A stretch of DNA of 64,000 nt, from the NCBI GenBank assembly GCA_037133755.1, contig JBAXNN010000008.1, positions 30,245 to 94,244 on the forward strand, in the 5' to 3' direction. The stretch is from Thermoleophilia bacterium. Its GTDB lineage: Bacteria > Actinomycetota > Thermoleophilia > Gaiellales > F1-60-MAGs149. The notes under the pieces are model-generated. The model worked only from the letters and a program-made list of their open reading frames with translations. It did no database searches and was not told where the DNA came from. Both the position numbers and the translations under genes were made by a program. This document shows, in pieces, positions 7,225 to 62,233 of this stretch (positions are counted from its first letter, which is position 1; each line of letters starts with the position of its first letter).

Positions 7225-9114
7225 TCAGGGCGTGAGTTCGATGCGGCGGCCGATCGCCGTCAAGAGCTCGGGTGGCACGCCGAAGAACTCGGGACGCCCC
7301 TGGGAGAAGCGATGCATGGCGGCGAACAGATACAGCGGGACCGAGCGCAGTCCCCTGCCCTTGACGGCCACGGAGTCGCGCCCGATGAGGTAATCGGCCA
7401 CCTGTGGATCGAATGGCTCGCCCAGCGCGAGTCGCCCCAGTGCCGCAGGCACGTCAGGTTGCTCGGTGAACCCGAAGCGAAGCGCAATGCGCTGCACGCC
7501 GTGCTGCAGCACAACAACCTCGGCGCGCTCCGCCTCCGGAACCACGGGAACCTCGGTTGTGCTGATCGAGACGATCAGCGTGCGCTCGTAGATGCCTCCG
7601 GTGCGATCGGCCAGTTTCATCAGCGTCCCAGGCGCCACCTCCGGCTCACGCACGAGGAAGACACCCGTACCACGCAACCGGCCGCGGGCCGATGGCGGCA
7701 ACGTGGCCAGGAATCCGTCCAGCGGCACGGCGTGAGCCGCCGCCTCGGCCAGCAAGCGATCACGCCCCGTCGACCACGAGCGGACGACGAAGAAGATCAC
7801 CACGGCGATGGAGACGGTGAACCACGCGCCGTGCACGATCTTGATCACGTTCGACGAGAAGAACAGGATGTCGACGACACCGAGCGGTACGTAGACGAGC
7901 GCCACGACCAGCGGCGACCAACGCCAGACCGTGCGAGCCACGATCGCCGCGAGGATCGTCGTGCAGATCAGGGTGCCAGTGACCGTCAGGCCGTACGCCA
8001 CGACGAGACGGGATGAGGACTGGAAGATCAGCACCGTCGCCGCCACGCCGATGAACATGATCAGCGTGATCACGGGGATGTTGATCTGCCCGCGGATCGT
8101 CTTCGAGGTGTGGACGATCGGCAGGCGCGGCAGAAATCCCATCTGCATCGCCTGCTGCGTCAGCGAGTACATGCCCGTGATGACCGCCTGCGACGCGATC
8201 ACCGTCGCCAGCGTGGCGAGCACGACCATCGGCAGCATCAGTCCGTCGGGAACCAGCGCGTAGAAGGGGTTGTTGATCTTACGCGGATCGTCCAGAACCA
8301 ATGCGCCCTGTCCGAGATAACACAGCACCAGTGCTGGGAAGACGATCACCGACCACGAGATCGTGATGGGTGGACGCCCGAAGTGCCCCATGTCGGCGTA
8401 CAACGCCTCGACACCGGTGATCGCGAGGGTGACCGCACCAAGCGCGAGGAACGTCATTGTCGGCTCGCGCAGCGCGAGGTCGATCGCATAGGTGGGACTG
8501 ATCGCCCGCAGCACCGAGGGGTTCTGCACGATCTGCACGATGCCGAGTGCCGAGATCACGGTGAACCAGAGAAGCATGATCGGCCCGAACACGCGCCCGA
8601 TGCTCCCTGTGCCCCAGCGCTGCATCATGAAGAGGAGCGTCAGGATGACCAACGCGATCTCGGTCTCGTACTCCTGCAATCCGCTATTGATGAGCGATGC
8701 TCCCTCGATCGCCGACAGCACCGACACGCTCGGCGTGAGTACCGCGTCGGCGGCGAAGAGCGCGATCGCGAGCATGCTGAGGAAGATGACCAGCGCCCGG
8801 CGTCGCCCCCGGACGAGAGGCTCAACGAGGGCGCCCAGCGCCAAGGTGCCGCCCTCGCCGTTGTTCGATGCCCGCATCACAACGATCACGTACTTGATGG
8901 TGACCACGATGATGAGCGCCCAGACGAACAGTGAGAGCGCACCAAGCACGGATGGCTCGTCGACGGTGAGGCCGATATCGGGGCCGAACGCGGCCTGGAA
9001 GGCGTAGAGCGGGCTGGTGCCGATGTCGCCGTAAATGACACCGAGCGCGGCGAGGACAAGCAGCGCGACCGCGCCGCGTCGCGGCGTGCCCTGGTGACGA
9101 TTCGCATGCGGCAT
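7225..9114 (-). CDS. kup: KUP/HAK/KT-family potassium uptake transporter
   Basis: 629 aa and polytopic. N-terminal signature GVIYGDIGTSPLYAF; GEGGTLAL; a C-terminal cytosolic domain. Confidence 0.9.
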   Translation of the reverse strand: MPHANRHQGTPRRGAVALLVLAALGVIYGDIGTSPLYAFQAAFGPDIGLTVDEPSVLGALSLFVWALIIVVTIKYVIVVMRASNNGEGGTLALGALVEPLVRGRRRALVIFLSMLAIALFAADAVLTPSVSVLSAIEGASLINSGLQEYETEIALVILTLLFMMQRWGTGSIGRVFGPIMLLWFTVISALGIVQIVQNPSVLRAISPTYAIDLALREPTMTFLALGAVTLAITGVEALYADMGHFGRPPITISWSVIVFPALVLCYLGQGALVLDDPRKINNPFYALVPDGLMLPMVVLATLATVIASQAVITGMYSLTQQAMQMGFLPRLPIVHTSKTIRGQINIPVITLIMFIGVAATVLIFQSSSRLVVAYGLTVTGTLICTTILAAIVARTVWRWSPLVVALVYVPLGVVDILFFSSNVIKIVHGAWFTVSIAVVIFFVVRSWSTGRDRLLAEAAAHAVPLDGFLATLPPSARGRLRGTGVFLVREPEVAPGTLMKLADRTGGIYERTLIVSISTTEVPVVPEAERAEVVVLQHGVQRIALRFGFTEQPDVPAALGRLALGEPFDPQVADYLIGRDSVAVKGRGLRSVPLYLFAAMHRFSQGRPEFFGVPPELLTAIGRRIELTP

Positions 9115-9160
9115 CGCAGCCGTATCCTAGAACAAAGATTTCGTATTCAGCGGCACATCG

Positions 9161-11071
9161 TCAGATCTCGACGCGCGCGCCCATCGTGACCGTGTGATCC
9201 GGGGGCACGTGGAAGAAGTCCGTCGAGACCTGTGCGTGGCGATGGAGCAGCGCGAAGACGCGGCGCGGGAAGCCGATGAAGCCGCGGGACGTGACAGCAA
9301 CGGTGTCGCGGCCAACGAAGTACGACGTCGTCTCCGGGTCGATGTGGGGTCCGATCGCGCTCGCCTCGAGCGCGACGGGGACGTTCGGCGACTCGGCAAA
9401 GCCGAAGCGCAGGAACACGCGCCACAGGCCCGGGCTGATCTCCGTCGCCTCAGAGCGATTGGCATCGGTCGCGTACGGCGTGTCAAGCGTCTGCACGGTC
9501 AGCAGCACAGTCAGCTCGTGGATGCGGCCGAAGTTGCGGATCGTGGCGATCAGCGGGCGTGGCACATGGGTGGACGAGGCGACGAGGAACACGCCGGTGC
9601 CCTCCGTGCGCTTGTACTTGCCGGCCGCGACCTTCTCGGTGAAGTCATCGGCCGGCACGGCCTCGCGCGAGAGCGCGCGCATCATCGCCGTGCGTCCCGT
9701 CGACCACGACGAGATGATGATGAACAGGATTGTCGCGACGACCAGCGAGAACCACGCGCCGTGCGGGATCTTCGACATGTTGGCAGTGAAGAACGCGACG
9801 TCGACGATGCCGAGCGGTCCGAAGATCAGCACGATGCGCCACTTCGGCCAGTGCCAGAGGTGGAAGGCGACGATCACGGCGAGGACCGTGGTGCACACCA
9901 ACGTACCGGTGACGGCGAGACCATAGGCCGCCGCGAGGTGCTCGGAAGACTTGAAGATCAGGATCGTCGCAACCACCGCGAGGTACTGGAACAGCGTGAT
10001 GACGGGCATGAAGATCTGGCCGCGCACCGTCGCCGACGTCTGCAGCACCTTCATGCGCGGCAGCAGGCCGAGCTGCATCGCCTGGCGCGTCACGGAATAG
10101 GCGCCCGAGATGACGGCTTGGGACGCGATCACCGTGGCGAGCGTGGCGAGGATCACGACCGGAATCTCGATCCCACCCGGCACGAGGTGGTAGAAGGGAT
10201 TGTCGATCAGCTGCGGATTCTCGAGCAGCAGCGCGCCCTGACCGAGGTAGCAGAGCGTGAGACTCGGGAAGACGATCAGCAGCCACGACAGCGTGATCGG
10301 CGGGCGGCCGAAATGCCCCATGTCCGCGTACAGCGCCTCGGCACCGGTGATCGCGAGCGTGACCGCACTGAGCGCGCCGAACGACAGCAGCGGATGGGCG
10401 ACGATGAACTCGAAGGCGTAGATCGGCAGGATCGCGCGCACCACGGTCGGGTTCTCGCGGATGCCGTTGATGCCAATACCCGCGATGACGAGAAACCAGA
10501 CGAGCATGATCGGGCCGAACAGGCGGCCGACCTTCTCCGTGCCGAAGCGCTGGCCGAGGAAGAGCGTCGTCAGAATCACGAGCGCGATCACGATCGCATA
10601 CCGCTCGATCTCGGGAAACTTGAGGCCTGCGCCTTCGACAGCTGACAGCACCGAGATGCTCGGTGTCAGCACCGCGTCGCTCATGAAGAGCGAGACCGCG
10701 AGGATGCCGACGATGATCACCATCGTGCGCGTCTTGTTCTGCACGAAGCGCAGCGCGAGCGACTGAAGCGCCAGATCGCCGCCCTCCCCCTTGTTGTTGG
10801 CGCGCGTCACGATGATCACGTACTTGATCGTCACGACGATGATCAGTGCCCAGATGAACATCGAGAGGAGGCCGAGGATGTCCTGCTCGTTCGGCTTCAT
10901 GCCGAACGTCGAGCTGAAGGCCACCTGCATCGCGTAGAGCGGGCTCGTGCCGATGTCGCCGTAGATCACCCCGAGCGCGCCGAGCGCGAGGAGTGGCAGT
11001 GGCCCGTGCGGGACATGGCTGCCTCCGGAGGTGGCGTGGTTCGAATCGGACAATGCAGTGCGGCGTCGCAT
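9161..11071 (-). CDS. kup: KUP/HAK/KT-family potassium uptake transporter (tandem paralogue)
   Basis: ORF 9161..11110. The start is uncertain (ATG 11071 MRRRTALSD.. or 11110). Motifs GVIYGDIGTSPLYAM and GEGGDLAL. Colinear with the downstream kup. Confidence 0.88.
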   Translation of the reverse strand: MRRRTALSDSNHATSGGSHVPHGPLPLLALGALGVIYGDIGTSPLYAMQVAFSSTFGMKPNEQDILGLLSMFIWALIIVVTIKYVIIVTRANNKGEGGDLALQSLALRFVQNKTRTMVIIVGILAVSLFMSDAVLTPSISVLSAVEGAGLKFPEIERYAIVIALVILTTLFLGQRFGTEKVGRLFGPIMLVWFLVIAGIGINGIRENPTVVRAILPIYAFEFIVAHPLLSFGALSAVTLAITGAEALYADMGHFGRPPITLSWLLIVFPSLTLCYLGQGALLLENPQLIDNPFYHLVPGGIEIPVVILATLATVIASQAVISGAYSVTRQAMQLGLLPRMKVLQTSATVRGQIFMPVITLFQYLAVVATILIFKSSEHLAAAYGLAVTGTLVCTTVLAVIVAFHLWHWPKWRIVLIFGPLGIVDVAFFTANMSKIPHGAWFSLVVATILFIIISSWSTGRTAMMRALSREAVPADDFTEKVAAGKYKRTEGTGVFLVASSTHVPRPLIATIRNFGRIHELTVLLTVQTLDTPYATDANRSEATEISPGLWRVFLRFGFAESPNVPVALEASAIGPHIDPETTSYFVGRDTVAVTSRGFIGFPRRVFALLHRHAQVSTDFFHVPPDHTVTMGARVEI

Positions 11072-13436: not shown

Positions 13437-14185
13437 ACGCGACGCTGGAGCGCGGCGACCGAGGCGGTCGATAGCGGCTCGCGCGTGATGCCCGTCGTTC
13501 CGCCACGCGTGGCGAAGGCGGTGATGCGGCCGGCGCGCTCGCCGTGATGCGCGAGCAGGCGGTGACGGCGGATGTCGTGCACGAGGAAGTCGACGGTCGC
13601 GGCGAGGCCATCGACCACGGTGACGTCACCGGCCAGCTCGCGTACCTCATCGGCGTCGACGTACGCGCTCGGCGTGAGCAATAGGAGCACCGCTACCTCG
13701 GGCGCGTGCTTGCGGACGCGCATGAGCAGATCGCGGGCGGGATCGGTACCGCGCTCGATCAGCGTGACGCTACCGCCGCCGCGCAGCGTGCGGATCGCCT
13801 TGGCCAGCACCATCGTCTTGACCTCGTCGGACGAGAACACCGCGGCGATCGGGCGCCCCTTCGCCTCGGCCAGGGCCGCGCGCAGGCCGCACTCCAGTCC
13901 CCGTACGGAGATGCCCTCGAACTCGGGTCGCGCCTCGAAGGATGCGAAGCCGCCGGCGAGCAGCAGCGCCTTGGCGCCCTCATCGAGGAGCCCCGTCGCG
14001 AGATCGTGCACGCGCCGCGTCACCTGATCGGGCCGCCGGCCCGCGTACGGCGCGAACGCCTGGTCGGCGACGACGAGGATGTCCTCCTTCGGCAGTTGGG
14101 CGCGCAGGAGCTCGGCTCCGCGCACGCCCTCCCAGCCCTCGGCGACGACCCCGATCGAACCTGCCGGGTCGGCGCTCCAGGTCAC
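13433..14185 (-). CDS. Glutamate-racemase-like (Asp/Glu racemase fold) protein lacking both catalytic cysteines
   Basis: ORF 13433..14311 trimmed to GTG 14185, which overlaps the upstream TGA. SIGVVAEGWEGVRGAELLRAQLPKEDILVVADQAFAPYAGRRPDQV..AKALLLAGGFASFEA aligns by eye with MurI IGVxDSGVGGL..LP.E.IIYxGDTARxPYG..[12 protein letters not shown]. The CNTA motif is replaced by GGFA and GCTHYP by LTPSAY. Confidence 0.5.
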   Translation of the reverse strand: MTWSADPAGSIGVVAEGWEGVRGAELLRAQLPKEDILVVADQAFAPYAGRRPDQVTRRVHDLATGLLDEGAKALLLAGGFASFEARPEFEGISVRGLECGLRAALAEAKGRPIAAVFSSDEVKTMVLAKAIRTLRGGGSVTLIERGTDPARDLLMRVRKHAPEVAVLLLLTPSAYVDADEVRELAGDVTVVDGLAATVDFLVHDIRRHRLLAHHGERAGRITAFATRGGTTGITREPLSTASVAALQRRV

Positions 14186-15348
14186 GACCGCGGTCGCTTC
14201 TTCTCCGAGTCGTAGATTGGGAATGCAGCGGCCGTCGCCTCGGCGAGAGTCCCGTCGGGAAGCGCAACCTGTACACGCGTACCGGATGCGACGAGGTCTG
14301 CCTCGATGCACGCCATGCCGATCTGCAAATCGACGCTCGGCGAACGACCCGCCGACGGCGACAGCAACGTTCCGACATTCCGACCATCGACAAAGACCTC
14401 TGCCCCGTAATCCGGTGCCTCATCTCCGTCGACGACCAGCGTCGTGAGGCGGTGCGTGATGCCCGCGGCCAGCTCATCGACCAGCGCCTGCTTGCCAACG
14501 AAGTCACCCGTATCGAGACTGATGGTCCGATCCAGATTCATGTGGAACGGCGAAGTCTCGCCCACGAAATAGTCGTAGCCGATAAAGATCAGGCCCGACT
14601 CGATCCGCAGCGACTCAACCGCAGCCAGACCGTACGGACGGATTCCGTACGCTGCACCAGCCGCGAGCAGAGCCTCCCACAACATCTCGGCGCTGTCCTT
14701 CGGCACGTAGATCTCGTAGCCGAGCTCGCCCGAGTACCCCGTGCGAGCCAAGTAGCAGCCGGCAATACCCGCGACCGTGATCGGCTCCGTCGTGAAGCGG
14801 AAGTACTTGAGCGACGCGACCTCGAAGTCCGTGAGGCCATCGATCAGGTCACGCGACTTGGGACCCTGTACCTGGACGTGCGGCCACTCCTCGGTGCGAT
14901 CGAGGATTTCGACGTCGAAACCCTGCTGCGTCGAGACACGGCGAAAGTGATCGACGTCACTCGGCAGCGCGGTCACCACGAGGATGCCGGCACCCGTCTC
15001 ATCACCGGTGTTGAAGACCACACCGTCGCCGAGCATGCAGCCGTTCTCGTCGAGAAAGCACGAGTACCGGGCCTGTCCGACGGCAAGGTCAGACATGTCG
15101 TTGGCGAAGCAGAAGTCGACGGCCTTGATCGCGTCGTTGCCGCGGAAGATCCACTTCTGCAACGGCGACTCGTCCCAAACACCAACGGTCTCGCGAACCG
15201 CATGGTGCTCGGCAAGTGGATTGCCGAAGTCGGAGATCCAATCCCAGCCCTCCCACTCGGCAAAGGTGCCACCCTGACGACGCTGAATCGCGTCAAAGGC
15301 CGTCAACCGCAGGCCTTCAGCGCCGGCTGCGTTTTCCTGATCGCTCAT
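14182..15348 (-). CDS. GcvT-like aminomethyltransferase-family (folate-binding) protein
   Basis: Part of ORF 14182..16050. ATG 15348 overlaps the upstream TGA (ATGA). MSDQENAAGAEGLRLTAFDAIQRRQGGTFAEWEGWDW..ARTGYSGELGYEIYVP..YGLAAVESLRIESGL is typical of the GcvT/DmdA fold. Confidence 0.85.
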   Translation of the reverse strand: MSDQENAAGAEGLRLTAFDAIQRRQGGTFAEWEGWDWISDFGNPLAEHHAVRETVGVWDESPLQKWIFRGNDAIKAVDFCFANDMSDLAVGQARYSCFLDENGCMLGDGVVFNTGDETGAGILVVTALPSDVDHFRRVSTQQGFDVEILDRTEEWPHVQVQGPKSRDLIDGLTDFEVASLKYFRFTTEPITVAGIAGCYLARTGYSGELGYEIYVPKDSAEMLWEALLAAGAAYGIRPYGLAAVESLRIESGLIFIGYDYFVGETSPFHMNLDRTISLDTGDFVGKQALVDELAAGITHRLTTLVVDGDEAPDYGAEVFVDGRNVGTLLSPSAGRSPSVDLQIGMACIEADLVASGTRVQVALPDGTLAEATAAAFPIYDSEKKRPRS

Positions 15349-17342
15349 GACCGCGGTCTCCTCTTCTCGGGGTCGTAGATCGGGTACGTGTCGGTGTACG
15401 CCGGGACGAGACGGCCGTCGGGCAGCGCCACCTCGACGCGATTGCCCGGCTCGGCCAGCTCGGCCTCGATGCACGCCATGCCGATCAGGCGATCGACGCT
15501 CGGCGAGCGTCCCGCCGACGGCGACAGCAGCTTGCCGACACCGCGACCGTTGACGAAGACATCGGCGCCGTAGTCCGGCGCCTCGTTGCCCGCGACGACG
15601 AGCGTCGTGAGGCGATGCGTGATGCCCGCGGCCAGCTCGTCGACGAGCGCCTGCTTGCCGTTGAAGTCGCCCGTCTCCAGGTTGATCGTCCGGTCCAGGT
15701 TCATATGGAACGGCGAGGTCAGGCCCTGGAAGTAGTCGTAGCCGATGAAGATCAGGCCCGACTCGATGCGGAGCGACTCGACGGCGGCGAGGCCGTACTG
15801 ACGGATGCCGCGCGACGCGCCCTCGTTGAGGAGCTCCTGCCAGAGCGCTTCGGCGCCGGCCTTCGGCACGTAGATCTCGTAGCCGAGCTCGCCCGAGTAG
15901 CCAGTGCGGGCCAGGTAGCAGCCCGCGATGCCGCCGATCGTGATCGGCTCCGTCGTGAAGCGGAAGTACTTGAGCGAGTCGACGTCGAAGTCGGTCATCG
16001 CGCTGATCAGCTCGCGCGACTTCGGACCCTGCACCTGGATGTGCGGCCACTCCTCGGTGCGGTCGAGGATCTCGACGTCAAAGCCCTGCTGCTTCGAGAC
16101 GCGGCGGAACTGGTCCACGTCGCTCGGCAGTGCGGTCACCACGAGGATGCCGGCACCGGTCTCGTCGCCCGTGTTGAAGGCGACGCCGTCGCCGAGCATG
16201 CGACCGTACTCGTCGACGAAGCACGAGTAGCGGGCCTGGCCGACCTGCATCGAGGCCATGTCGTTGGCGAAGCAGTAGTCGACGGCCTTGAGCGCGTCGG
16301 GTCCGCGGAAGATCCACTTCTGCAGCGGTGACTCGTCCCAGATGCCGACGGTCTCGCGGACCGCGTGGTGCTCGTCGATCGGATCGCCGAAGTCAGAGAT
16401 CCAGTCCCAGCCCTCCCACTCGGCGAAGGTGCCGCCGTTGCGGCGCAGAATCGCGTCGAAGGCTGTCTTGCGCAGACCCTCGGTCGAGACCTGCGGGGCG
16501 GGCGCCTCGACGATCGCGATGCCGGCGGCCTCAGCGGGAGGTGAACCCTCCTGATCGGCGGCAGCGACCGGGGTGTCGACGGGGATGATCACGATCGGCG
16601 CCTGGCGCAGGTCCGGCGGCTGATGGCCCGGCGGCAGCACCTCGGACACGCCCAACAGAGCGCGCGCGGCGGCCGGATTCGGCAGCGTGCGGTACTCCTC
16701 GAGGCAGCGCATAGGCTCCTGGTCGAGGTTGCGGCGGATGCGGCGATAGCGGGCCTGCGCACCGGCACCGAGGCCCGGCGTCGAGAAGATCGCCTGCTCG
16801 ACGTACGACTCAATCACCTTGTTGCCGAGCAGCTTGACGTCGGCCTCGCGGGCCTTGCCCGTGAGCGGGTTGTACAGCACGACGCACTTGATGGTGTCGA
16901 GGAACGAGTTCCACGTCGACAGCACGACGGGACCACGGACGCGAATGCCTGTCTCGGGGATCGCGAGGTGCGTGATGCGGCGGTCATTGATCGTGTGGAT
17001 CAGCGACTCAGCGGTCGGCGACATGATGCTGACGAACTTGTGCATCGGCCACACGTCGAGCTGGTTCCAGTCGCCGGGCTCGCAATCGACGCCGATCATG
17101 TACGTGTCGGCGTAGCGGAAGAAGTTCGCATTGCCCCGCGTCTCGCGCAAGTGGTCGTAGAACAGCGTGTTCGTGCCGCCGATCAGGTTCGAGCAGCCAA
17201 CGGCGTCCATCGGCGTGCCCATCACCACGCAGAAGCGGTCGCCGTTCTTGTAGCCACCGGGCCAGAGGGTGTTCAGCGGAGCGGAAACGCCGTCGCGCTC
17301 GACGGAGAAGTCCTCGGAATTGAGTGCGTAGGACGAATGCAT
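15345..17342 (-). CDS. Fusion protein: unrecognised ~255-aa N-terminal domain, Pro/Ala linker, GcvT-like aminomethyltransferase domain
   Basis: 665 aa. Residues ~288-665 are colinear and highly similar to the downstream stand-alone GcvT-like protein. Residues 1-255 (MHSSYALNSEDFSVERDGVSAPLNTLWPGGYKNGDRFCVVMGTPMDAVGCSNLIGGTNTLFYDHLRETRGNANFFRYADTYMIGVDCEPGDW..) have no nucleotide-binding motif I recognise. Confidence 0.8.
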   Translation of the reverse strand: MHSSYALNSEDFSVERDGVSAPLNTLWPGGYKNGDRFCVVMGTPMDAVGCSNLIGGTNTLFYDHLRETRGNANFFRYADTYMIGVDCEPGDWNQLDVWPMHKFVSIMSPTAESLIHTINDRRITHLAIPETGIRVRGPVVLSTWNSFLDTIKCVVLYNPLTGKAREADVKLLGNKVIESYVEQAIFSTPGLGAGAQARYRRIRRNLDQEPMRCLEEYRTLPNPAAARALLGVSEVLPPGHQPPDLRQAPIVIIPVDTPVAAADQEGSPPAEAAGIAIVEAPAPQVSTEGLRKTAFDAILRRNGGTFAEWEGWDWISDFGDPIDEHHAVRETVGIWDESPLQKWIFRGPDALKAVDYCFANDMASMQVGQARYSCFVDEYGRMLGDGVAFNTGDETGAGILVVTALPSDVDQFRRVSKQQGFDVEILDRTEEWPHIQVQGPKSRELISAMTDFDVDSLKYFRFTTEPITIGGIAGCYLARTGYSGELGYEIYVPKAGAEALWQELLNEGASRGIRQYGLAAVESLRIESGLIFIGYDYFQGLTSPFHMNLDRTINLETGDFNGKQALVDELAAGITHRLTTLVVAGNEAPDYGADVFVNGRGVGKLLSPSAGRSPSVDRLIGMACIEAELAEPGNRVEVALPDGRLVPAYTDTYPIYDPEKRRPRS

Positions 17343-18125: not shown

Positions 18126-18153
18126 GACACCATGGGCCCGGGCCCATCGTGTC
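18126..18153. repeat. GC-rich palindromic repeat, family 1 (core ATGGGCCCGGGCCCAT)
   Basis: GACACcATGGGCCCGGGCCCATcGTGTC is a 28-nt palindrome with one mismatch. It is intergenic. Confidence 0.85.
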
Positions 18154-18315
18154 AGGAGTGCTGCGTGATCGTTCTGCGCGCTGCACGCGCGTTCCGATGC
18201 GTCCCGCGCCTGCCGCTCCGTCGCTGAACGCGCAACGCCTGTATTGACCGGTGAGGAATCGGCCTGAGTGTCCGAGTCTTCGGTCGCAATTGCGTGCGCG
18301 TTTCACCACAGATCA

Positions 18316-18349
18316 CCTGACACAGTGGGCCCGGGCCCATCGTGTCAGG
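18316..18349. repeat. GC-rich palindromic repeat, family 1, second copy
   Basis: CCTGACACagTGGGCCCGGGCCCAtcGTGTCAGG. The 26 nt TGGGCCCGGGCCCATCGTGTCAGGAG are identical to 18133..18158, 193 nt away. Confidence 0.85.
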
Positions 18350-18392
18350 AGAGCCAATGCAGCGGGCTGAAGCGGTGCCTGATGGCAGCGCG

Positions 18393-29020: not shown

Positions 29021-29091
29021 GGGCCGGTAGCTCGAAGGTCGAGCAGGAGACTTTTAATCTCTCGGTCAGGGTTCGATTCCCTGTCGGCCCA
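29021..29091 (+). tRNA. tRNA-Lys (anticodon UUU)
   Basis: Hand-folded cloverleaf. Acceptor stem GGGCCGG/TCGGCCC (one G-U); U8; D stem GCTC/GAGC with a GG loop; anticodon stem GGAGA/TCTCT; loop CT-TTT-AA; T arm CAGGG-TTCGATT-CCCTG; discriminator A. No encoded CCA. Confidence 0.9.
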
Positions 29092-38790: not shown

Positions 38791-39635
38791 CGCCCGAGCA
38801 GGCGGTCGCCATCGCCTGCACCGCGCTCGGTGCGGATCCCGCCGACGCACAGGTTCTGCGCGCCGCCGACGCCATCACCGTGCAGCTTGACGCCGAGCGG
38901 GTCGCGCGCGTGATTCCCGACGCCGATGCCGACACGCTGCGCGTGCTCGCGGCGATTGCCGCGCTCGACGGCCACGTGCTCGAGCCGCTGGGAGAGCCGA
39001 TCGCGCTCGACGGCGCCCTCGTCGTGCCCTACCCGCGCGTTACGCCGAACGGCGATGCGCATCGCGACCTCGGCATCGCCGGTGCGTGCCTGGCCGGCCT
39101 GCACGCCCGCGGCCGGGCCGCGCTCGAGCGCGGCGACATCGATCTGCCTGAGTTCTCGCCGTCTGCCATTGCGACGCGGTGGCTTGATCGGGCTGACGCC
39201 GTGTTCACCCGCGACGAGCGCGCGCGGTTGCTCGACGCGATCGACACTGCGTGGCCCGAGGTGGCGGGCTCGCCAACCGTGATCCACGGCGATGCGCACC
39301 TCGGCAACTGGTGGCCGGCGACCAACGACTGGTGGGTGCTGATCGACCCTGAGTTCCTCTCGATCGGACCAGCTGTCTACGACCTAGCCCCGCTTGAGGT
39401 CGTCGAGCGCCGGCTCGGCACGCCCCCATCGCGCTTCCCGTCGTTCCTGGCCGGCTACGAGTCGGCCGACGGCGCGGTCGATCGGCGCTCGCTGGCGTCT
39501 GCCATCCACGTGCGCGAGTTGCTCTCCGTCGCGTGGCTTGCCTCGCGTTCGGGCGACGACTCCGAGCTGGCGTTGCGCACGCGCCGACGTCTCGTCGATG
39601 CCCTCGAGCGCCGCGAGGGCTCGTGGCTCGCATAG
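38787..39635 (+). CDS. Aminoglycoside-phosphotransferase/choline-kinase-fold kinase (APH family)
   Basis: In ORF 38691..39635. GTG 38787 overlaps the upstream TGA. Catalytic loop VIHGDAHLGNWW followed by LIDPEF (Brenner/APH motif). Confidence 0.7.
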   Translation: MTPEQAVAIACTALGADPADAQVLRAADAITVQLDAERVARVIPDADADTLRVLAAIAALDGHVLEPLGEPIALDGALVVPYPRVTPNGDAHRDLGIAGACLAGLHARGRAALERGDIDLPEFSPSAIATRWLDRADAVFTRDERARLLDAIDTAWPEVAGSPTVIHGDAHLGNWWPATNDWWVLIDPEFLSIGPAVYDLAPLEVVERRLGTPPSRFPSFLAGYESADGAVDRRSLASAIHVRELLSVAWLASRSGDDSELALRTRRRLVDALERREGSWLA

Positions 39636-40471
39636 CCGCGGTCGAGCGCGGCCGCTCGCCGATCGACATCCCTGGCACGCTCGCGTGGCTCGGCCAGCGG
39701 ACCGTCGTCGGCATCGACGACTGGGACGGCACCACCTACACACGCACAGCGGCGCTTGGCCGGGGCACAGGACGAATCACGCTGCGCGCCACCGGCAAGG
39801 CGGGCGTCGAGGTGACGGCGTGGAACGAGCGCGCGCTCGCCGCCATCCGCCCGCGCGTCCGGCACTTGCTCGGCCTCGATGACGATCCGCGACCCTGGCT
39901 GGCGGCGTTCGCCGACGACCCGGTACTCGGGCCGCGCGTTGCGGCACACCCGGGGCTGCGTATGCCCGGCTCGTGGGATGCGTGGGAGATGTGCGCCCGA
40001 GCGGTGCTCGGGCAGCTCGTGTCCGTCGCCGCGGCGCGCACGCTCACCATGCGCCTCGCCGAGCGCCATGGCCGTCGGTTGGCCGATGGCGGCATCGTCT
40101 TTCCCGACGCGGCCACGGTCGCAGCGGGCGACCTCGATGGTCTCGGTCTACCGGCTGCACGCCGCGATGCGTTGCGGGCGATCGCCGAACTCGTTGCGTC
40201 CGGCGGTGTCGACCTATCGCCTGCCGCCGACCCGGAGGCAGCACAGGCCGCGCTCGTCGCACTCAAGGGCATCGGGCCATGGACCGCGATGTACGTGCGC
40301 ATGCGCGCCATCCGCGATCTCGATGCATTTCCCGCTGCAGACCTCGGCGTGTTGATCGCGCTGGCCGATGCGCACGGCAAGCGACCGACCGAGGCCGAGG
40401 CCCGTCGCCGCGGCGAGGTCTGGCGTCCGTACCGCGGTGTCGCCACGATGCACCTCTGGGGCCTCGCCTAG
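39623..40471 (+). CDS. HhH-GPD DNA glycosylase, AlkA-like (3-methyladenine glycosylase II family)
   Basis: In ORF 39533..40471. The start is uncertain (GTG 39623 proposed). AVLGQLVSVAAARTLTMRL.., LKGIGPWTAMYVRMRA (HhH) and ..FPAADLGV. Confidence 0.7.
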   Translation: MARIAAVERGRSPIDIPGTLAWLGQRTVVGIDDWDGTTYTRTAALGRGTGRITLRATGKAGVEVTAWNERALAAIRPRVRHLLGLDDDPRPWLAAFADDPVLGPRVAAHPGLRMPGSWDAWEMCARAVLGQLVSVAAARTLTMRLAERHGRRLADGGIVFPDAATVAAGDLDGLGLPAARRDALRAIAELVASGGVDLSPAADPEAAQAALVALKGIGPWTAMYVRMRAIRDLDAFPAADLGVLIALADAHGKRPTEAEARRRGEVWRPYRGVATMHLWGLA

Positions 40472-40563
40472 CTGTTCTGCCTATGGGCCTGTGAGACGCT
40501 TAACGTCGTGCGGTGGTGCGAGGACTTCGCCGTGACGAGCGGACGTCGAGGTGGTAATGCGCG

Positions 40564-40602
40564 GTGGATGTCCCAAAGGGGTCAGACCTTTTTGGGACAT
40601 GG
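40564..40602 (+). repeat. Palindromic repeat family 2, copy A1
   Basis: GTGGATGTCCCAAAGGGGTCAGACCTTTTTGGGACATgg. It is a near-palindrome; the outer right arm is degenerate. Confidence 0.85.
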
Positions 40603-40631
40603 CTGCGTTCCGCTGCAGATCGACTCCGCCC

Positions 40632-40670
40632 TGATGTCCCAAAAGGGTCTGACCCCTTTGGGACATCCAC
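40632..40670 (-). repeat. Palindromic repeat family 2, copy A2 (inverted relative to A1)
   Basis: tgATGTCCCAAAAGGGTCTGACCCCTTTGGGACATCCAC. Its reverse complement matches A1 except for one base in the core. The 25 outer nt of A1 and A2 are perfect reverse complements. Confidence 0.85.
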
Positions 40671-40758
40671 CCTCCACGGCCACGCCGATCGCGCCCAACG
40701 CCACGGCTTCATCCCGCACCGTCGCACAGACCCATCGGCAGAACACGTGGGTGCAACG

Positions 40759-40777
40759 GCGCCGAGCGCGTCGGCGC
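40759..40777 (-). terminator. GC hairpin immediately after the DUF3891-like gene stop
   Basis: GCGCCGA gcgcg TCGGCGC, a 7-bp stem directly adjoining stop codon 40778..40780. No U tract. Confidence 0.35.
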
Positions 40778-41479
40778 TCAGGCCACGGCGACGAGCGAGA
40801 GCGTGCGCACCGACGTACCCACAATGGGAAACGGCGCCGATCCCGCCACCGACACGACGGGGACCATCAGCTCGCAGCTGGCCGGCAGCAGCCCGACGGG
40901 CATACGGACGACATCACCATCGCGCTCGACGTCGGTGTCCTCACCGCTCGGGCGCTCGAGCGCCAGCTCGTCGCCGTCGGGCCAGCCGCAGAGCCAGAGC
41001 GACATGAAGTCGACCATCGCGCACAGGCGCTGGTCGTGGTGCAGGTCGGCCGACGAGACGCCCAGCTCTTCGGCACGCTGCTCGGCGAGCGTGCGCCACG
41101 AGCCGATCACGGCGTCGCGCTGCTCCGCCAGGTGCGGGTCTTGGACGACGCGCGCGCCATGCAGCCACGCCCCATGCAGCGCCACGATCGCCTCGGCGTA
41201 CGGATGCAGATCACCGGCCAACCGCACCGACTCGCCGGAGACGTCGAGGTGCTCGGCCAACGACAGCTCGAGGAAGGACTCGGGACCGTCGCCGTCGCCG
41301 CTGCGCGGCTCGTGATCACGCTCGGCCCAGCCGTCATCGTGGTGCGCGACGGCGAGCCGAAAGCCTTCGAGCGGTCCTCGCGGCGCGTCGGCGATGGCGT
41401 CGAGAAGCGTGCACGCGAGCACGCCGTGATCAGGCTGGCGCACCAGCTCCCACCCCTGGCCAGACGAACGGCAGATCAT
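40778..41479 (-). CDS. DUF3891-like protein
   Basis: In-frame tail of ORF 40778..41695 from ATG 41479. MICRSSGQGWELVRQPDHGVLACTLL.. resembles my recollection of the DUF3891 N-terminus. Confidence 0.5.
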   Translation of the reverse strand: MICRSSGQGWELVRQPDHGVLACTLLDAIADAPRGPLEGFRLAVAHHDDGWAERDHEPRSGDGDGPESFLELSLAEHLDVSGESVRLAGDLHPYAEAIVALHGAWLHGARVVQDPHLAEQRDAVIGSWRTLAEQRAEELGVSSADLHHDQRLCAMVDFMSLWLCGWPDGDELALERPSGEDTDVERDGDVVRMPVGLLPASCELMVPVVSVAGSAPFPIVGTSVRTLSLVAVA

Positions 41480-41514: not shown

Positions 41515-42939
41515 GTGATGACCAGCCTGCTGCCCGGACTCCCCCACGCCTCGCTCGAGATCGGTGGTGTGCGCCTCGACGGCGACGAGCTGGCCGGTGC
41601 GGTCGGTGCGGTCGCGGTTTCGCTCGCCGATCACACCCGCGTGGCACTGTGGTGCACCTCGGAGCTCGTAACGGGACTCGGCATTGCCGGCGCACTGATC
41701 GCTGGCGTGACGGTCGTGCCGATCAACCCCGCCTCGGGCGATCGCGAGCTCGCGCACGAGACCGGCGACAGTCGGCCAGAGGCCGTTCTGGCTTCGGCCA
41801 CCGCAGAGTTGCCGCCGACACTCGCCGCGCTGCCCCGCATCGTGATCGACCCCGCGGCCCGCGCACCGCTCCCGTCGATCGACACCCCGCCCGATGTGGC
41901 CGCGCTGATCGTCTACACGTCGGGCACCACCGGCGCCCCCAAGGGCGTCGTGATGTCGCGCCGCGCCGTCGCCGCGAACCTCGACGCCCTCGCCGACGCC
42001 TGGGCGTGGACGAGCGCTGATGTCGTGGCGCAGGCGCTGCCGCTCTTTCACGTGCACGGTCTCGTGCTCGGCACCGTCGGCCCGCTCCGGCTCGGCGGCG
42101 GCGTACGGCACGTCGGCCGCTTCTCGCCGGAGGCGATCGCCGCAGCGTTCGCAGACGACGCCACGATGCTCTTCGCCGTGCCAACCATGCACGGGCGTCT
42201 GCTCGCCGCCGCTGAGGCGGACCCGGCTGTCGCCAACGCCCTGCGCAGCGCACGCCTGATTGTCTCTGGCTCCGCCGCGCTGCCGGCCCGCGTCCACGAG
42301 GCGTACACCGCGGCCACGGGCCAGCAGATCGTCGAGCGCTACGGCATGAGCGAGGCGCTGATGATCGCGAGCGCCCGCCACGACGGCCCACGCATCCCCG
42401 GCGCGGTCGGCACGGCCCTGCCCGGCGTCGAGATCCGCATTACCGATGACGCCGGTGTCGTGATGCCCGTCGGCGACACCGACACGATCGGCAACGTCGA
42501 GATCAAGAGCGCGTCGCTGTTCGATGAGTACCTCGGGCGCCCTGACGCGACGGCCGAGGCCTTCAACGACGGCTGGTTCCGTACGGGCGACGTCGGCTCG
42601 CTCGACAACGATGGCGTGCTCCGTCTGGTCGGGCGCAGCTCGACCGACCTGATCAAGACCGGCGGGTATCGCGTCGGCGCTGGCGAGATCGAGGCCGCGA
42701 TGCTCGAGCACCCCGACGTCGTCGAGGTGGCCGTGCTCGGCATCCCCGACGACGACCTCGGCGAGCGCATCGCCGCCTGGGTGGTGATCACCCCCGGCAG
42801 CGACCTCACCGACGATGTGCTCGTGCAGCACGTCGCCGACCTCCTCGCACCGCACAAGCGCCCGCGCGTGATCACCCGCGTCGACGAGCTACCGCGCAAC
42901 GCGCTCGGCAAGGTGCAGAAGAAGCGGCTGCTCGGATGA
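41515..42939 (+). CDS. AMP-dependent acyl-CoA synthetase/ligase (MatB-like size)
   Basis: IVYTSGTTGAPKGVVMS (AMP-binding motif I), FRTGDVG, GRSSTDLIKTGGYRV, and a terminal LPRNALGKVQKK. Confidence 0.88.
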   Translation: MMTSLLPGLPHASLEIGGVRLDGDELAGAVGAVAVSLADHTRVALWCTSELVTGLGIAGALIAGVTVVPINPASGDRELAHETGDSRPEAVLASATAELPPTLAALPRIVIDPAARAPLPSIDTPPDVAALIVYTSGTTGAPKGVVMSRRAVAANLDALADAWAWTSADVVAQALPLFHVHGLVLGTVGPLRLGGGVRHVGRFSPEAIAAAFADDATMLFAVPTMHGRLLAAAEADPAVANALRSARLIVSGSAALPARVHEAYTAATGQQIVERYGMSEALMIASARHDGPRIPGAVGTALPGVEIRITDDAGVVMPVGDTDTIGNVEIKSASLFDEYLGRPDATAEAFNDGWFRTGDVGSLDNDGVLRLVGRSSTDLIKTGGYRVGAGEIEAAMLEHPDVVEVAVLGIPDDDLGERIAAWVVITPGSDLTDDVLVQHVADLLAPHKRPRVITRVDELPRNALGKVQKKRLLG

Positions 42940-52076: not shown

Positions 52077-52724
52077 TCACGGAGCGCTGAGCGGGCCGCC
52101 CTCGTCCTCGACGGCCTTGCGGCACCCCGGGCGAGCCAGCACGGCGTCGTAGTGCGCGGCGAGCGACGGCACCTTCCACCAGTTTGCGTCGCCCTCGAGT
52201 TCGGTACCCCACGACGACAGCATCGCGAGGTAGATGTCGGCGATCGTGAACGTCTGCCCGAGCAAGAAGGGGCCGTTGCCGAGCTGCTTGGCGATCTCGT
52301 CGCGCAGCGCCGTCAACTCGACGACGGCCGCGGCAACGACGGCGTCGGCACCGTTGGCATCGGCCGTGTGTCGCGCCGGATAGAAGAAGCGTAGGTACGC
52401 CGCCTGCACGGTGTTCGTCAGGAACATCAGCCAGCGCACGGCCTCAGCCCGCTCGGGCGTGCCGACCTTCGGGATCAGGTCGTGATCGGGAAACGCGTCC
52501 GCGAGGTGCAGGCAGATCGCCGCCGACTCGGTCAGCACGAGCTCGTTGTGCTTAAGCACCGGCACCTTGCCGAACGGACTCATCTCCAGGTAGCCGGCGG
52601 GCGATGTCGGCACGCCGTCCTCGGTGCGCTCGACCAACACGAAGTCGTAGAGCGTGCCGATCTCCTCCAAGACCATGTGGGGAGCGGAGGTGGCGGTACC
52701 GGGGATGCCGTAGAGGGTGATCAT
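52077..52724 (-). CDS. Glutathione S-transferase family protein
   Basis: MITLYGIPGTATSAPHMVLEEIG..SPFGKVPVLKHNELVLTESAAICLHL. Confidence 0.8.
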   Translation of the reverse strand: MITLYGIPGTATSAPHMVLEEIGTLYDFVLVERTEDGVPTSPAGYLEMSPFGKVPVLKHNELVLTESAAICLHLADAFPDHDLIPKVGTPERAEAVRWLMFLTNTVQAAYLRFFYPARHTADANGADAVVAAAVVELTALRDEIAKQLGNGPFLLGQTFTIADIYLAMLSSWGTELEGDANWWKVPSLAAHYDAVLARPGCRKAVEDEGGPLSAP

Positions 52725-52761
52725 GGGCGAAGCGTAGCGCCGCCCATGATCACCCTCTACG
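52709..52761. promoter_or_regulatory. Perfect 21-bp inverted repeat (11-nt spacer) enclosing the GST start codon
   Basis: Left arm CGTAGAGGGTGATCATGGGCG (52709..52729) covers 5 nt of leader, the ATG and codons 2-5 plus part of codon 6. Right arm CGCCCATGATCACCCTCTACG (52741..52761) is its exact reverse complement in the 5' leader. Confidence 0.8.
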
Positions 52762-52799
52762 TGGATGTTCCAAAGGGGTCAGACCCTTTTGGAACATCG
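52761..52799 (+). repeat. Palindromic repeat family 2, copy B1
   Basis: GTGGATGTTCCAAAGGGGTCAGACCCTTTTGGAACATcg. Confidence 0.85.
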
Positions 52800-52829
52800 A
52801 TCCCGCCCGCCGAACCTCCCGCTTCGCGC

Positions 52830-52870
52830 GTGGATGTTCCAAAAGGGTCTGACCCCTTTGGAACATCCAC
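52830..52870 (-). repeat. Palindromic repeat family 2, copy B2 (inverted relative to B1; full 41-nt near-palindrome)
   Basis: GTGGATGTTCCAAAaGGGTCtGACCCcTTTGGAACATCCAC. 14-bp perfect outer arms and an inner GGGTC/GACCC stem. Confidence 0.85.
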
Positions 52871-52872
52871 GC

Positions 52873-52910
52873 CCAGTCGGGTGGAGGCCTAAAGGCCTCC
52901 ACCCGACTGG
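52873..52910 (-). terminator. Perfect 17-bp hairpin with the glxD-like stop codon in its loop
   Basis: CCAGTCGGGTGGAGGCC taaa GGCCTCCACCCGACTGG. TAG (52891..52889) spans the loop/stem junction. The last six codons form one arm. Confidence 0.55.
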
Positions 52911-62118: not shown

Positions 62119-62160
62119 CTGACGTGATGGACGTGATGGGCCCGGGCCCATCACGTCAGG
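62119..62160. repeat. GC-rich palindromic repeat, family 1, third copy (arm variant)
   Basis: GACGTGATGGGCCCGGGCCCATCACGTC is a perfect 28-nt palindrome (62130..62157). It is preceded by a 9-nt direct duplication of GACGTGATG. Confidence 0.85.
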
Positions 62161-62233
62161 CAATTCGCCCTGGATCCCGCATGGTTACGTGTGCCGACTT
62201 CGTCACGTCCCCAAGGCTCTCGCAAATTGCGGA

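Follow-up and report, generated by a model that had tools for sequence, protein, structure and literature searches.

REPINs (REP doublets forming hairpins) are inverted pairs of repetitive extragenic palindromes (REPs) that flank single-copy genes of REP-associated tyrosine transposases (RAYTs; PMC3337134, PMC5581495). The E. coli enzyme of this class, TnpA_REP, requires the hairpin together with a 5' GTAG and cleaves single-stranded DNA (PMC3479197). A further group, the TIRtrons, comprises RAYT-like genes (TIRYTs) with long flanking inverted repeats (terminal inverted repeats, TIRs) that have the common motif GGGGWSAS, and some of the TIR families are self-complementary, dimeric and moderately abundant (Di Nocera et al. 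2013, PMC3733652). Here we analyse a stretch of 64,000 nt (the window; 68% G+C) from the genome of a Thermoleophilia bacterium of the Gaiellales lineage, which contains four units of a palindrome of about 37–41 nt, arranged as two inverted doublets (locus A, 40564–40670, and locus B, 52761–52870). Both loci are probably copies of a REPIN-like non-autonomous mobile element spread by a RAYT-type Y1 enzyme, a reading to which we assign a probability of roughly 0.8; it draws on the bias towards doublets, the homologous spacer of locus A, the empty orthologous sites and a Y1 transposase gene bracketed by the same repeat in related genomes. It would explain two intergenic oddities of the window as copies of a mobile repeat.

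Most TIRYTs belong to TnpA_Y1 subclass 2.1, which was mapped to Group 1 of Bertels et al. (Quentin et al. 2018, PMC6006769). The signatures of this subclass are NH[VYF]H, W[EQ] and Y[IV]xLNP, a median length of 238 aa and a C-terminal HTH_23, HTH_28 or Bac_DnaA_C domain (PMC6006769). Group 1 is the most widely distributed RAYT class in the survey by Bertels et al. and corresponds to the second-largest subclass of Quentin et al., 2.1 (PMC5581495, PMC6006769). Quentin et al. reported no REP-like sequences beside subclass 2.1 genes (PMC6006769); the 16-mers flanking Group 1 genes had only about 12 copies genome-wide (PMC5581495), and Bertels et al. later stated that the REPIN association is limited to RAYT Groups 2 and 3. 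The biology of REPINs and RAYTs has so far been described almost entirely in Gammaproteobacteria, with RAYTs of Groups 2 and 3, and a term search of PMC3733652 and PMC6006769 for Actinobacteria found no mention of the phylum.

Inverted hairpin doublets in the window and in related genomes

The two doublets are composed of the following parts (scores in bits refer to a covariance model built from 81 units).

40564–40600, plus strand: unit A1, a GTGG head and then the hairpin ATGTCCCAAAGGGGTC-A-GACCTTTTTGGGACAT; 50.6 bits; unit fold z = -4.7
40601–40633, no strand: spacer A, 33 nt, homologous to doublet spacers at unrelated loci in other genomes (L099, L064, L053)
40634–40670, minus strand: unit A2, an inverted copy of A1 with one base different and the head outward; 55.8 bits
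52761–52798, plus strand: unit B1 (GTGGATGTTCCAAAGGGGTCAGACCCTTTTGGAACATC), ATGTT subtype; 55.5 bits
52799–52832, no strand: spacer B, 34 nt, without a detectable relative among 21 other spacers
52833–52871, minus strand: unit B2, an inverted copy of B1, 100% complementary, with GTGG/CCAC on both sides; 56.4 bits

The full sequence of A1 is GTGGATGTCCCAAAGGGGTCAGACCTTTTTGGGACAT, and its tip, GGGGTCAG, which all units have in common, matches the pattern GGGGWSAS. A sequence-only reading of the window had described A1 and A2 as inverted copies with identical outer 25 nt, one differing base and a 33-nt spacer, had regarded each unit as a hairpin and the whole doublet as a possible long hairpin, and had pointed to the same architecture at locus B. 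The window sequence bears this out: at locus B, the 39-nt arms (52760–52798 and 52833–52871) are 100% complementary, with 34 nt between them, and, in comparison with shuffled sequences, the units fold on both strands with z-scores of -4.5 to -6.7 and the whole doublets with z-scores of -11 to -15. The diagnostic 20-mer pattern matches the four units only, and none of 100 dinucleotide-preserving shuffles matches it; an unfiltered run of the covariance model over the window scores the four units at 42–56 bits, the next best site reaching about 11 bits. A search of the window against Rfam brought only a tRNA to the gathering threshold, and six repeat loci gave chance-level matches (E up to 1). 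REPs of the GTAG superfamily have a conserved, unpaired tetranucleotide, GT[A/G]G, at one palindrome end (Nunvar 2010; Di Nocera 2013); here, GTGG is present on the outer side of all four units. The stem ATGTCCC...GGGACAT of locus A corresponds to ATGTTCC...GGAACAT at locus B, the C/T change being compensated in all four arms; A1 carries CCT where CCC is expected, a mutation that makes its own hairpin weaker.

Among named homologs of window proteins, the nearest belongs to a Gaiellales metagenome-assembled genome (MAG; 91% identity), and the organisation of the units was assessed in sampled loci of three related Thermoleophilia/Actinomycetota MAGs. Units paired at 64–76 nt start-to-start make up 18/19, 14/16 and 6/9 of the units found there (38 of 44 over the three MAGs; 4 of 4 in the window), and all pairs but one in the three MAGs are inverted, which amounts to a strong doublet bias in this lineage. 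The elements are intergenic and usually lie no more than 50 nt from the 3' end of a gene, and no cluster above two units was seen in related actinobacterial genomes. In 21 doublets, the outer arms pair for 4–14 nt past the core (at least 6 nt in 19 of them), often as GTGGATGTC/GACATCCAC, and the inner arms for about 5 nt; GTGG occupies 17 of the 42 outer positions versus 1 of the 42 inner ones, is elsewhere replaced by CGGG, ACGG, GCGG and others, and often pairs with CCAC on the far side. No target-site duplication was found in the 21 doublets, at most 4 of 8 flank bases matching.

The length of the spacers is constrained, with 41–53 nt between cores, and their sequence is poorly conserved. 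About ten spacers in four genomes, spacer A included, are nevertheless homologous, with scores of 8–18 versus a null 99th percentile of 3; the global alignments of spacer A itself score 8–9, where the null distribution has a 99th percentile of 3.0 and a maximum of 8. Since these homologous spacers stand at unrelated loci, at least the spacer-A subfamily has been copied as a whole doublet. In about half of the doublets, doublet B among them, the spacers are unrelated in sequence and conserved in length.

Comparison of orthologous sites indicates that sites A and B are both empty in the nearest relatives compared. Doublet A lies between the stop codons of the convergent genes for an AlkA_N protein (39533–40471, plus strand) and a DUF3891 protein (40778–41479, minus strand), and doublet B separates two minus-strand genes, one for a Glu_synthase-domain protein (stop 52889–52891) and one for a GST (start 52724). 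For site A, syntenic regions of four related genomes (L112–L115) were located through orthologs of the neighbouring malonyl-CoA synthetase gene; where the synthetase protein is 91–93% identical, the AlkA_N and DUF3891 stops are 5 nt apart, and 14–21 kb of the site A regions contain no unit, the exception being a diverged singlet in L116 that is visible to the covariance model only. The four related genomes are unit-free over 14–27 kb of syntenic DNA. At site B, the same two genes in L119 (a 390-kb contig, adjacent protein 95% identical) are separated by 42 nt of unrelated spacer. The doublets mark what would be recent insertions separating the source genome from its nearest relatives.

Turnover is visible at other orthologous positions as well. 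L033 and L096, with flanks about 97% identical, have a doublet versus a singlet, the difference being a 66-nt indel bounded inside the core; 3' of efp, three genomes with flanks 95–97% identical have doublets of different subtype (ATGTC vs ATGCT) with unrelated spacers; and a relative whose synthetase is 80% identical has a singlet of another subfamily directly 3' of the alkA stop. As judged from these alignments, the element is gained, lost, collapsed and replaced, and is not a fixed site, though some gene ends are reused.

The bracketed Y1 transposase and the wider repeat family

The REPIN analogy of the sequence-only reading implied a RAYT, and a RAYT-type Y1 transposase gene is indeed found in related genomes, bracketed by the same doublets or units. 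Scanning of the open reading frames (ORFs) bracketed by units yielded the gene L054:558–1355 (minus strand) of an Actinomycetota MAG, the product of which matches Pfam Y1_Tnp (36.8 bits, cutoff 23) and has a C-terminal HTH_23 domain, with HTH_23, HTH_17 and MerR matches at residues 235–268. REP_Tyr_transpos is the best NCBIfam match, with 73.6 bits versus 21.2 bits for IS200, and the best match in the PDB by sequence is 4ER8 (E. coli TnpA_REP). The modelled structure of a 58%-identical homolog, P0005 (pLDDT 91), has the same 4ER8 as the top Foldseek match (E 6.9e-7, target-normalised TM 0.73), followed by the ISDra2, IS608 and IS200 transposases, and its C-terminus forms a helical bundle of its own. 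The homologs show no variation in NHxH, the catalytic Tyr and NPV, and have the motifs NHHH, WQ and YVDLNP and a length of 250–265 aa.

Bracketing units or doublets accompany the gene in L054, L102–104, L105, L106 and L108, which represent three diverged lineages. In L054, the stop codon is overlapped by a singlet, and 50 nt separate the start from an upstream doublet, the units being of the ATGTT subtype of locus B. The 3' unit overlaps the stop codon in L102 too. One doublet stands on either side of the P0005 gene of a Thermoleophilia MAG, whose encoded C-terminus (...KGSDPF...) extends into the hairpin; the P0006 and P0019 genes have an adjacent unit each; and the gene of P0016 (44% identity) has an inverted doublet upstream and a singlet downstream, with a different stem (GAGATTTCGTG...) and the same tip, GGGGTCAGACCCC. 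Around homologs of 44–58% identity, the same neighbours are met again, namely adh_short, aconitase, Asp_Glu_race and Cu_amine_oxid. These syntenic neighbours are not in the window, so their absence is uninformative on a loss of the RAYT. Many of the homologs are located on contigs of about 1 kb, as expected if the repeats break assemblies; such breakage of short-read assemblies is illustrated by a 2.7-kb contig with the exact GST protein of the window, which ends inside unit B1.

Distant homologs with about 25–38% identity (L109, L111, L199, L200) have no GGGGWSAS hairpin in the fetched flanks, and the link between transposase and hairpin is therefore clade-limited. Outside Actinomycetota, a homologous 'transposase' on a plasmid of Rhodospirillum rubrum ATCC 11170 is flanked by AAAAGGGGTCAGACCCCTT and AAAACGGGGTCTGACCCCTTTTAAA (AAAACGGGGTCTGACCCCTTTT), and a homologous gene on an Iodobacter plasmid is bounded by ordinary TIRs in which GGGGTCAG is present. 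When 2,736 ORFs from 100 loci were clustered all against all, no gene proved to be recurrently tied to the hairpin across phyla, only an ABC-transporter family recurring, and an IS200 probe gave zero matches.

The motifs and domain architecture of the transposase agree with TnpA_Y1 subclass 2.1 (Bertels Group 1, TIRYT). The likeness to TIRtrons includes a Y1/HUH enzyme of about 240–265 aa with a C-terminal HTH_23-type extension and the motifs NHxH, WQ and Y[IV]xLNP, flanking repeats with GGGGWSAS (here GGGGTCAG), a 3' repeat that overlaps the gene end and a patchy distribution across phyla. Unlike in TIRtrons, the motif stands here on the tip of a near-perfect hairpin, the genomic copies are inverted doublets of the REPIN type with a constrained spacer, and the conserved core comprises 23 nt rather than 8 nt. 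The inverted REP pair with a short spacer, the long hairpin and the extragenic, dispersed location are shared with the REPIN–RAYT systems of Pseudomonas and Enterobacteria (PMC3116915, PMC3337134), where the doublet is the replicating unit, as homologous spacers indicate here for the spacer-A subfamily, and where, as here, REPINs flank a syntenic RAYT, single-copy there and putatively so here, and the repeat stem and the RAYT diverge together between lineages. The differences are that the RAYT is of a subclass other than Groups 2/3 and has a helix-turn-helix (HTH) domain, that each unit is an almost perfect palindrome whereas classical REPs are imperfect, that the GTGG-like head is not invariant and many spacers are unrelated in sequence, and that the core is common to several phyla, unlike the lineage-specific classical REPs.

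E. coli TnpA_REP with its REPs and bacterial interspersed mosaic elements (PMC3479197; 4ER8) provides the closest structure, a hairpin with a 5' tetranucleotide head and a stem mispair at a fixed position, but the identity is only about 17%, and the E. coli enzyme has 165 aa and no HTH, strictly requires the GTAG head and cleaves at CT. Y1/HUH chemistry, subterminal hairpins, a single-strand mechanism and the lack of target duplication are common to IS200/IS605 elements too, from which the present gene differs in being putatively single-copy and syntenic, in not moving with its own ends and in its NCBIfam IS200 score of only 21 bits. The system is, then, one of REPIN/TIRtron-type repeats with a RAYT-class enzyme, a kind already known, in a phylum for which no description was found; in uncultured Actinomycetota of freshwater and soil, REPIN-type doublets nonetheless bracket a RAYT that fits a class reported to be REP-free.

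The element is not confined to the four copies of the window. A census in which the 23-nt core CCAAARGGGTCWGACCYYTTTGG was scanned against 185,579 species-representative genomes gave at least 100 matches. Those listed include Gaiellales, other Actinomycetota MAGs, Acidimicrobiales and Solirubrobacteraceae, and beyond these Eubacterium, Clostridium, Coprococcus, Mediterraneibacter, Extibacter muris, Olsenella uli, Parolsenella, Planctomycetota, Brocadiaceae, Nitrospira, Gemmatimonadaceae, Bacteroidales, Neolewinella, Lentisphaerae and Omnitrophota, as well as Chromatiales and a deltaproteobacterium. Individual carriers are Eubacterium sp. RUI101, Extibacter muris DSM 28560, Olsenella uli An820, Neolewinella lacunae KCTC 42187 and Planctomycetota CSMAG_2925. 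Among these listed matches, the core is unchanged in chromosomal repeats of about a dozen phylum-level lineages, and the outer stem varies by lineage yet stays complementary. The covariation in 81 distinct units from about 30 genomes is 0.283, versus 0.125 in shuffles (0 of 500 reach the observed value) and no more than 0.124 in slid controls; each of the five pairs outside the core has four to six pair types, and 38 of the 81 units contain a G.T/A.C mispair at a fixed position of the stem. No unit was found in 399 kb of unrelated metagenomic loci used as a negative control, and no paper in the library searched contained the core sequence.

The 23-nt core had 0 matches in 2.9 million viral contigs, and a 76-nt composite of two full units had no plasmid match, so these searches lend no support to transfer of the full core on phages or plasmids; a version of 18 nt flanks the RAYT on the Rhodospirillum plasmid. 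The cross-phylum occurrence of the core is best explained by a wide distribution of subclass 2.1-type enzymes. It is conceivable, though we would put it at somewhat below even odds, that RAYT Group 1/subclass 2.1 has its cognate REP in the GGGGTCWGACCCC hairpin with the core CCAAARGGGTCWGACCYYTTTGG, and that this hairpin constitutes a pan-bacterial, high-copy REP superfamily, with families in about a dozen lineages including Actinomycetota, Bacillota, Planctomycetota, Nitrospirota, Bacteroidota, Gemmatimonadota and Pseudomonadota, whose tip is frozen and whose stems co-evolve. If true, such a superfamily would be a counter-example to the statements that only Group 2 and 3 RAYTs have REPINs and that REPs are lineage-specific. 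The presumed recognition tip is identical in very distant phyla; if the link to the enzyme holds, one hairpin and one enzyme class would offer a tractable system for understanding how Y1 transposases read hairpins, and the tip would be an easy sequence tag for finding such systems in metagenomes.

Some observations concern the family in Firmicutes and its variants. Only 1 of 39 Firmicutes copies lies in a divergent (promoter) region; the G.U wobble shows no RNA-strand preference there (7 vs 12), and singlets between tandem genes have GGGGTCAG (centre base A) on the sense strand in 21 of 27 cases. In the gut bacterium Eubacterium sp. RUI101 (L042, L044, L057, L092, L098), the hairpin is extremely dense: the 230 kb sampled contain at least 72 units, which occupy almost all intergenic gaps, with many doublets at 51-nt spacing and a conserved spacer that is itself palindromic (...TCAATTGTACGCAATCTA...). 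The tip GGGGTCWGACCCC is also found with other stems (L125 48–125, L134 886, L141 2453, L038, L043, L072, L089), some of these copies being in tandem runs about 32 nt apart or back-to-back with a full unit, which suggests that further subfamilies exist.

Proposed mechanism and competing explanations

In the proposed scheme, the element consists of two inverted palindromic units, in each of which the near-invariant core CCAAAGGGGTC-W-GACCCYTTTGG is combined with an outer stem, ATGTY, and an outward head of the GTGG type; standing about 33 nt apart, the units can form two small hairpins or one hairpin of about 107 nt in single-stranded DNA. The family is dispersed in the intergenic DNA of Gaiellales/Thermoleophilia, mostly just 3' of genes. 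The candidate cognate enzyme, a putatively single-copy, syntenic RAYT-type Y1/HUH tyrosine transposase with a C-terminal HTH, would bind the tip of the hairpin in single-stranded DNA at the replication fork and cleave beside the tip through a 5'-phosphotyrosine intermediate; the strand would be rejoined elsewhere, and the doublet would move in trans without target-site duplication. For recognition, cleavage and strand transfer in trans, we infer this course from the analogues E. coli TnpA_REP (PMC3479197) and IS200/IS605 TnpA (PMC6006769). The G.T/A.C stem mispair could be the mark of asymmetry that such enzymes need; the mispair (38/81 units) and the sense-strand bias (21/27) fit a strand-specific single-strand process, without proving it. 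A host role, such as stabilising the 3' ends of mRNA, would be secondary and putative.

Several points weigh against this scheme. The GTGG head is not invariant (17/42 outer positions), and spacer B is an orphan, its best score of 3 against 21 other spacers being equal to the null 99th percentile. The extra DNA at locus A amounts to about 305 nt, three times the length of the doublet, and the boundaries of the insert are undefined. The match to NF047646 (REP-associated tyrosine transposase), at 73.6 bits, is below the curated cutoff of 80, in keeping with a divergent subclass, and the placement in subclass 2.1 comes from motifs and domain architecture, not from phylogeny. As the sequence-only reading had noted, no RAYT is present in the 64-kb window (zero matches of a RAYT-clade hidden Markov model to all six-frame ORFs of at least 70 aa), the candidate cognate enzyme being seen in related genomes; likewise, no RAYT was found beside the hairpin in Firmicutes, Planctomycetota and other non-actinobacterial lineages, where about 10% or less of each genome was sampled. 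The reuse of the efp and alkA 3' ends by different subfamilies points to hot spots or turnover in place. The insertions would follow from comparisons at about 83–90% nucleotide identity, and no transposition event or intermediate has been observed.

Part of this evidence would suit relic elements, that is, REPIN-like copies which have become immobile and decay slowly in a genome that lost its cognate transposase, as described for decaying REPINs in Neisseria gonorrhoeae (10.1101/2021.07.10.451892). This explanation, which differs only in present activity, has in our estimate a modest chance of being correct: the missing RAYT, the patchy presence with four related genomes unit-free over their syntenic DNA, the CCT-for-CCC mutation of A1 and the orphan spacer B all agree with it, but the 100% complementarity of doublet B over 39 nt and the single mismatch of doublet A indicate recent origin or maintenance, the subtype of the B units is the one that flanks an intact RAYT in L054, and a window of 64 kb from a multi-Mb genome says little about a missing single-copy gene. 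It is rather improbable that the doublets are fixed cis-regulatory RNA hairpins ('I-shaped' terminators or stabilisers of mRNA 3' ends), immobile and selected at two gene ends. REPs can take on roles at gene ends such as termination or mRNA stabilisation (PMC3733652), and the location just 3' of genes, between convergent or tandem ones, the very stable RNA folds on both strands and the avoidance of promoter regions (1/39 in Firmicutes) speak for this reading; however, both sites are empty in the nearest relatives with the flanking genes intact, neither locus has a U-tract or any hit in a terminator scan, no Rfam family matches, and the same sequence, which also brackets a transposase gene, is found at the ends of dozens of unrelated genes.

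The overall length of 107–110 nt and the long terminal inverted repeats resemble an ordinary miniature inverted-repeat transposable element (MITE) of a DDE-transposase insertion sequence, with TIRs of about 37 nt around a short core and cut-and-paste movement. We consider a MITE very unlikely, given the lack of target-site duplication in 21 doublets, the fact that each 'TIR' is itself a hairpin and is also found alone, the spacers conserved in length and poorly in sequence, and the Y1/HUH enzyme as the only gene recurrently bracketed by the repeat. Least credible of all is an operator pair for a dimeric DNA-binding protein or an orphan CRISPR-like array of two repeats, which palindromic units and CRISPR-like lengths (37-nt repeats, 33–34-nt spacer) might bring to mind: the units are inverted, not direct (32/33 positions agree as an inverted repeat vs 29/33 as a direct one), related actinobacterial genomes have no cluster above two units (cas genes were not searched for), and spacers are homologous between loci. 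Co-varying outer stems are not required of a double-stranded operator, and a density such as that in one Eubacterium MAG (at least 72 units in 230 kb) is far too high for a regulon.

Structures adjoining the doublets and further features of the window

Neither locus has a consensus terminator or promoter, the scan for a hairpin followed by a U-tract giving 0 sites. Three additional structures surround the doublets.

40465–40773, no strand: extra segment of about 305–309 nt, absent from orthologous sites, between the AlkA_N stop (40469–40471) and the DUF3891 stop (40778–40780)
52709–52761, no strand: perfect 21-bp hairpin with an 11-nt loop, abutting doublet B; the arm 52709–52729 includes the GST start codon (ATG 52724–52722, minus strand)
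52873–52910, no strand: perfect 18-bp hairpin, 2 nt from doublet B, with the Glu_synthase-domain gene's stop codon on its axis

The extra segment of locus A is a nested inverted repeat, with outer arms at 40473–40498 and 40720–40745 and the doublet in the centre; its DNA fold has an energy of -105.7 kcal/mol versus -63.7 for shuffles, and the outer arms have no other occurrence in the sequences compared. One arm of the 21-bp hairpin at locus B consists of the first 16 nt of the GST coding sequence and 5 upstream nt, and the other arm, facing the doublet, repeats it in inverted orientation; the doublet-free ortholog L119 has no such hairpin. As predicted from its sequence, this hairpin would sequester the GST start codon and 5 upstream nt and could repress translation of GST. 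The 18-bp hairpin is probably the Glu_synthase gene's own terminator-type hairpin, outside the element, since the stop codon falls within a hairpin loop in several unrelated orthologs too.

The possibility that insertion generates inverted copies of the flanks was considered and rejected: perfect palindromes are 27 times denser near units, but this density is confounded by the intergenic 3' position (terminators), and only the 21-bp inverted copy of the GST start region stays unexplained. Perfect hairpins of 18 bp and 27 bp adjoin doublets at L064 4285–4322 and L086 5084–5140 as well, the L064 hairpin apparently having a gene stop codon on its axis, as in the window at 52873–52910.

A second palindromic repeat, GACACCATGGGCCCGGGCCCATCGTGTC, has three copies in the window (18126–18161, 18319–18354 and 62130–62165). 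AGGAG follows directly after two of them, in one case with an ATG a few bases further on. None of the 202 fetched loci contains this repeat, which resembles an operator situated upstream of ribosome-binding sites rather than a REP. Two pairs of coding segments duplicated in tandem (7763–10993 and 14182–16481; periods of 1930 and 1163 nt, 67–85% identity) are presumably paralogous adjacent genes. At 42933–42937, the window is without a gene of about 2.1 kb (Phage_holin_4_2 and Phosphodiest domains, 695 aa; L112 11425–13512), which all four related genomes have between their genes for malonyl-CoA synthetase and Lactamase_B. A tRNA gene is located at 29021–29091; the start of the related contig L112 matches the 3' part of this gene with 100% identity.

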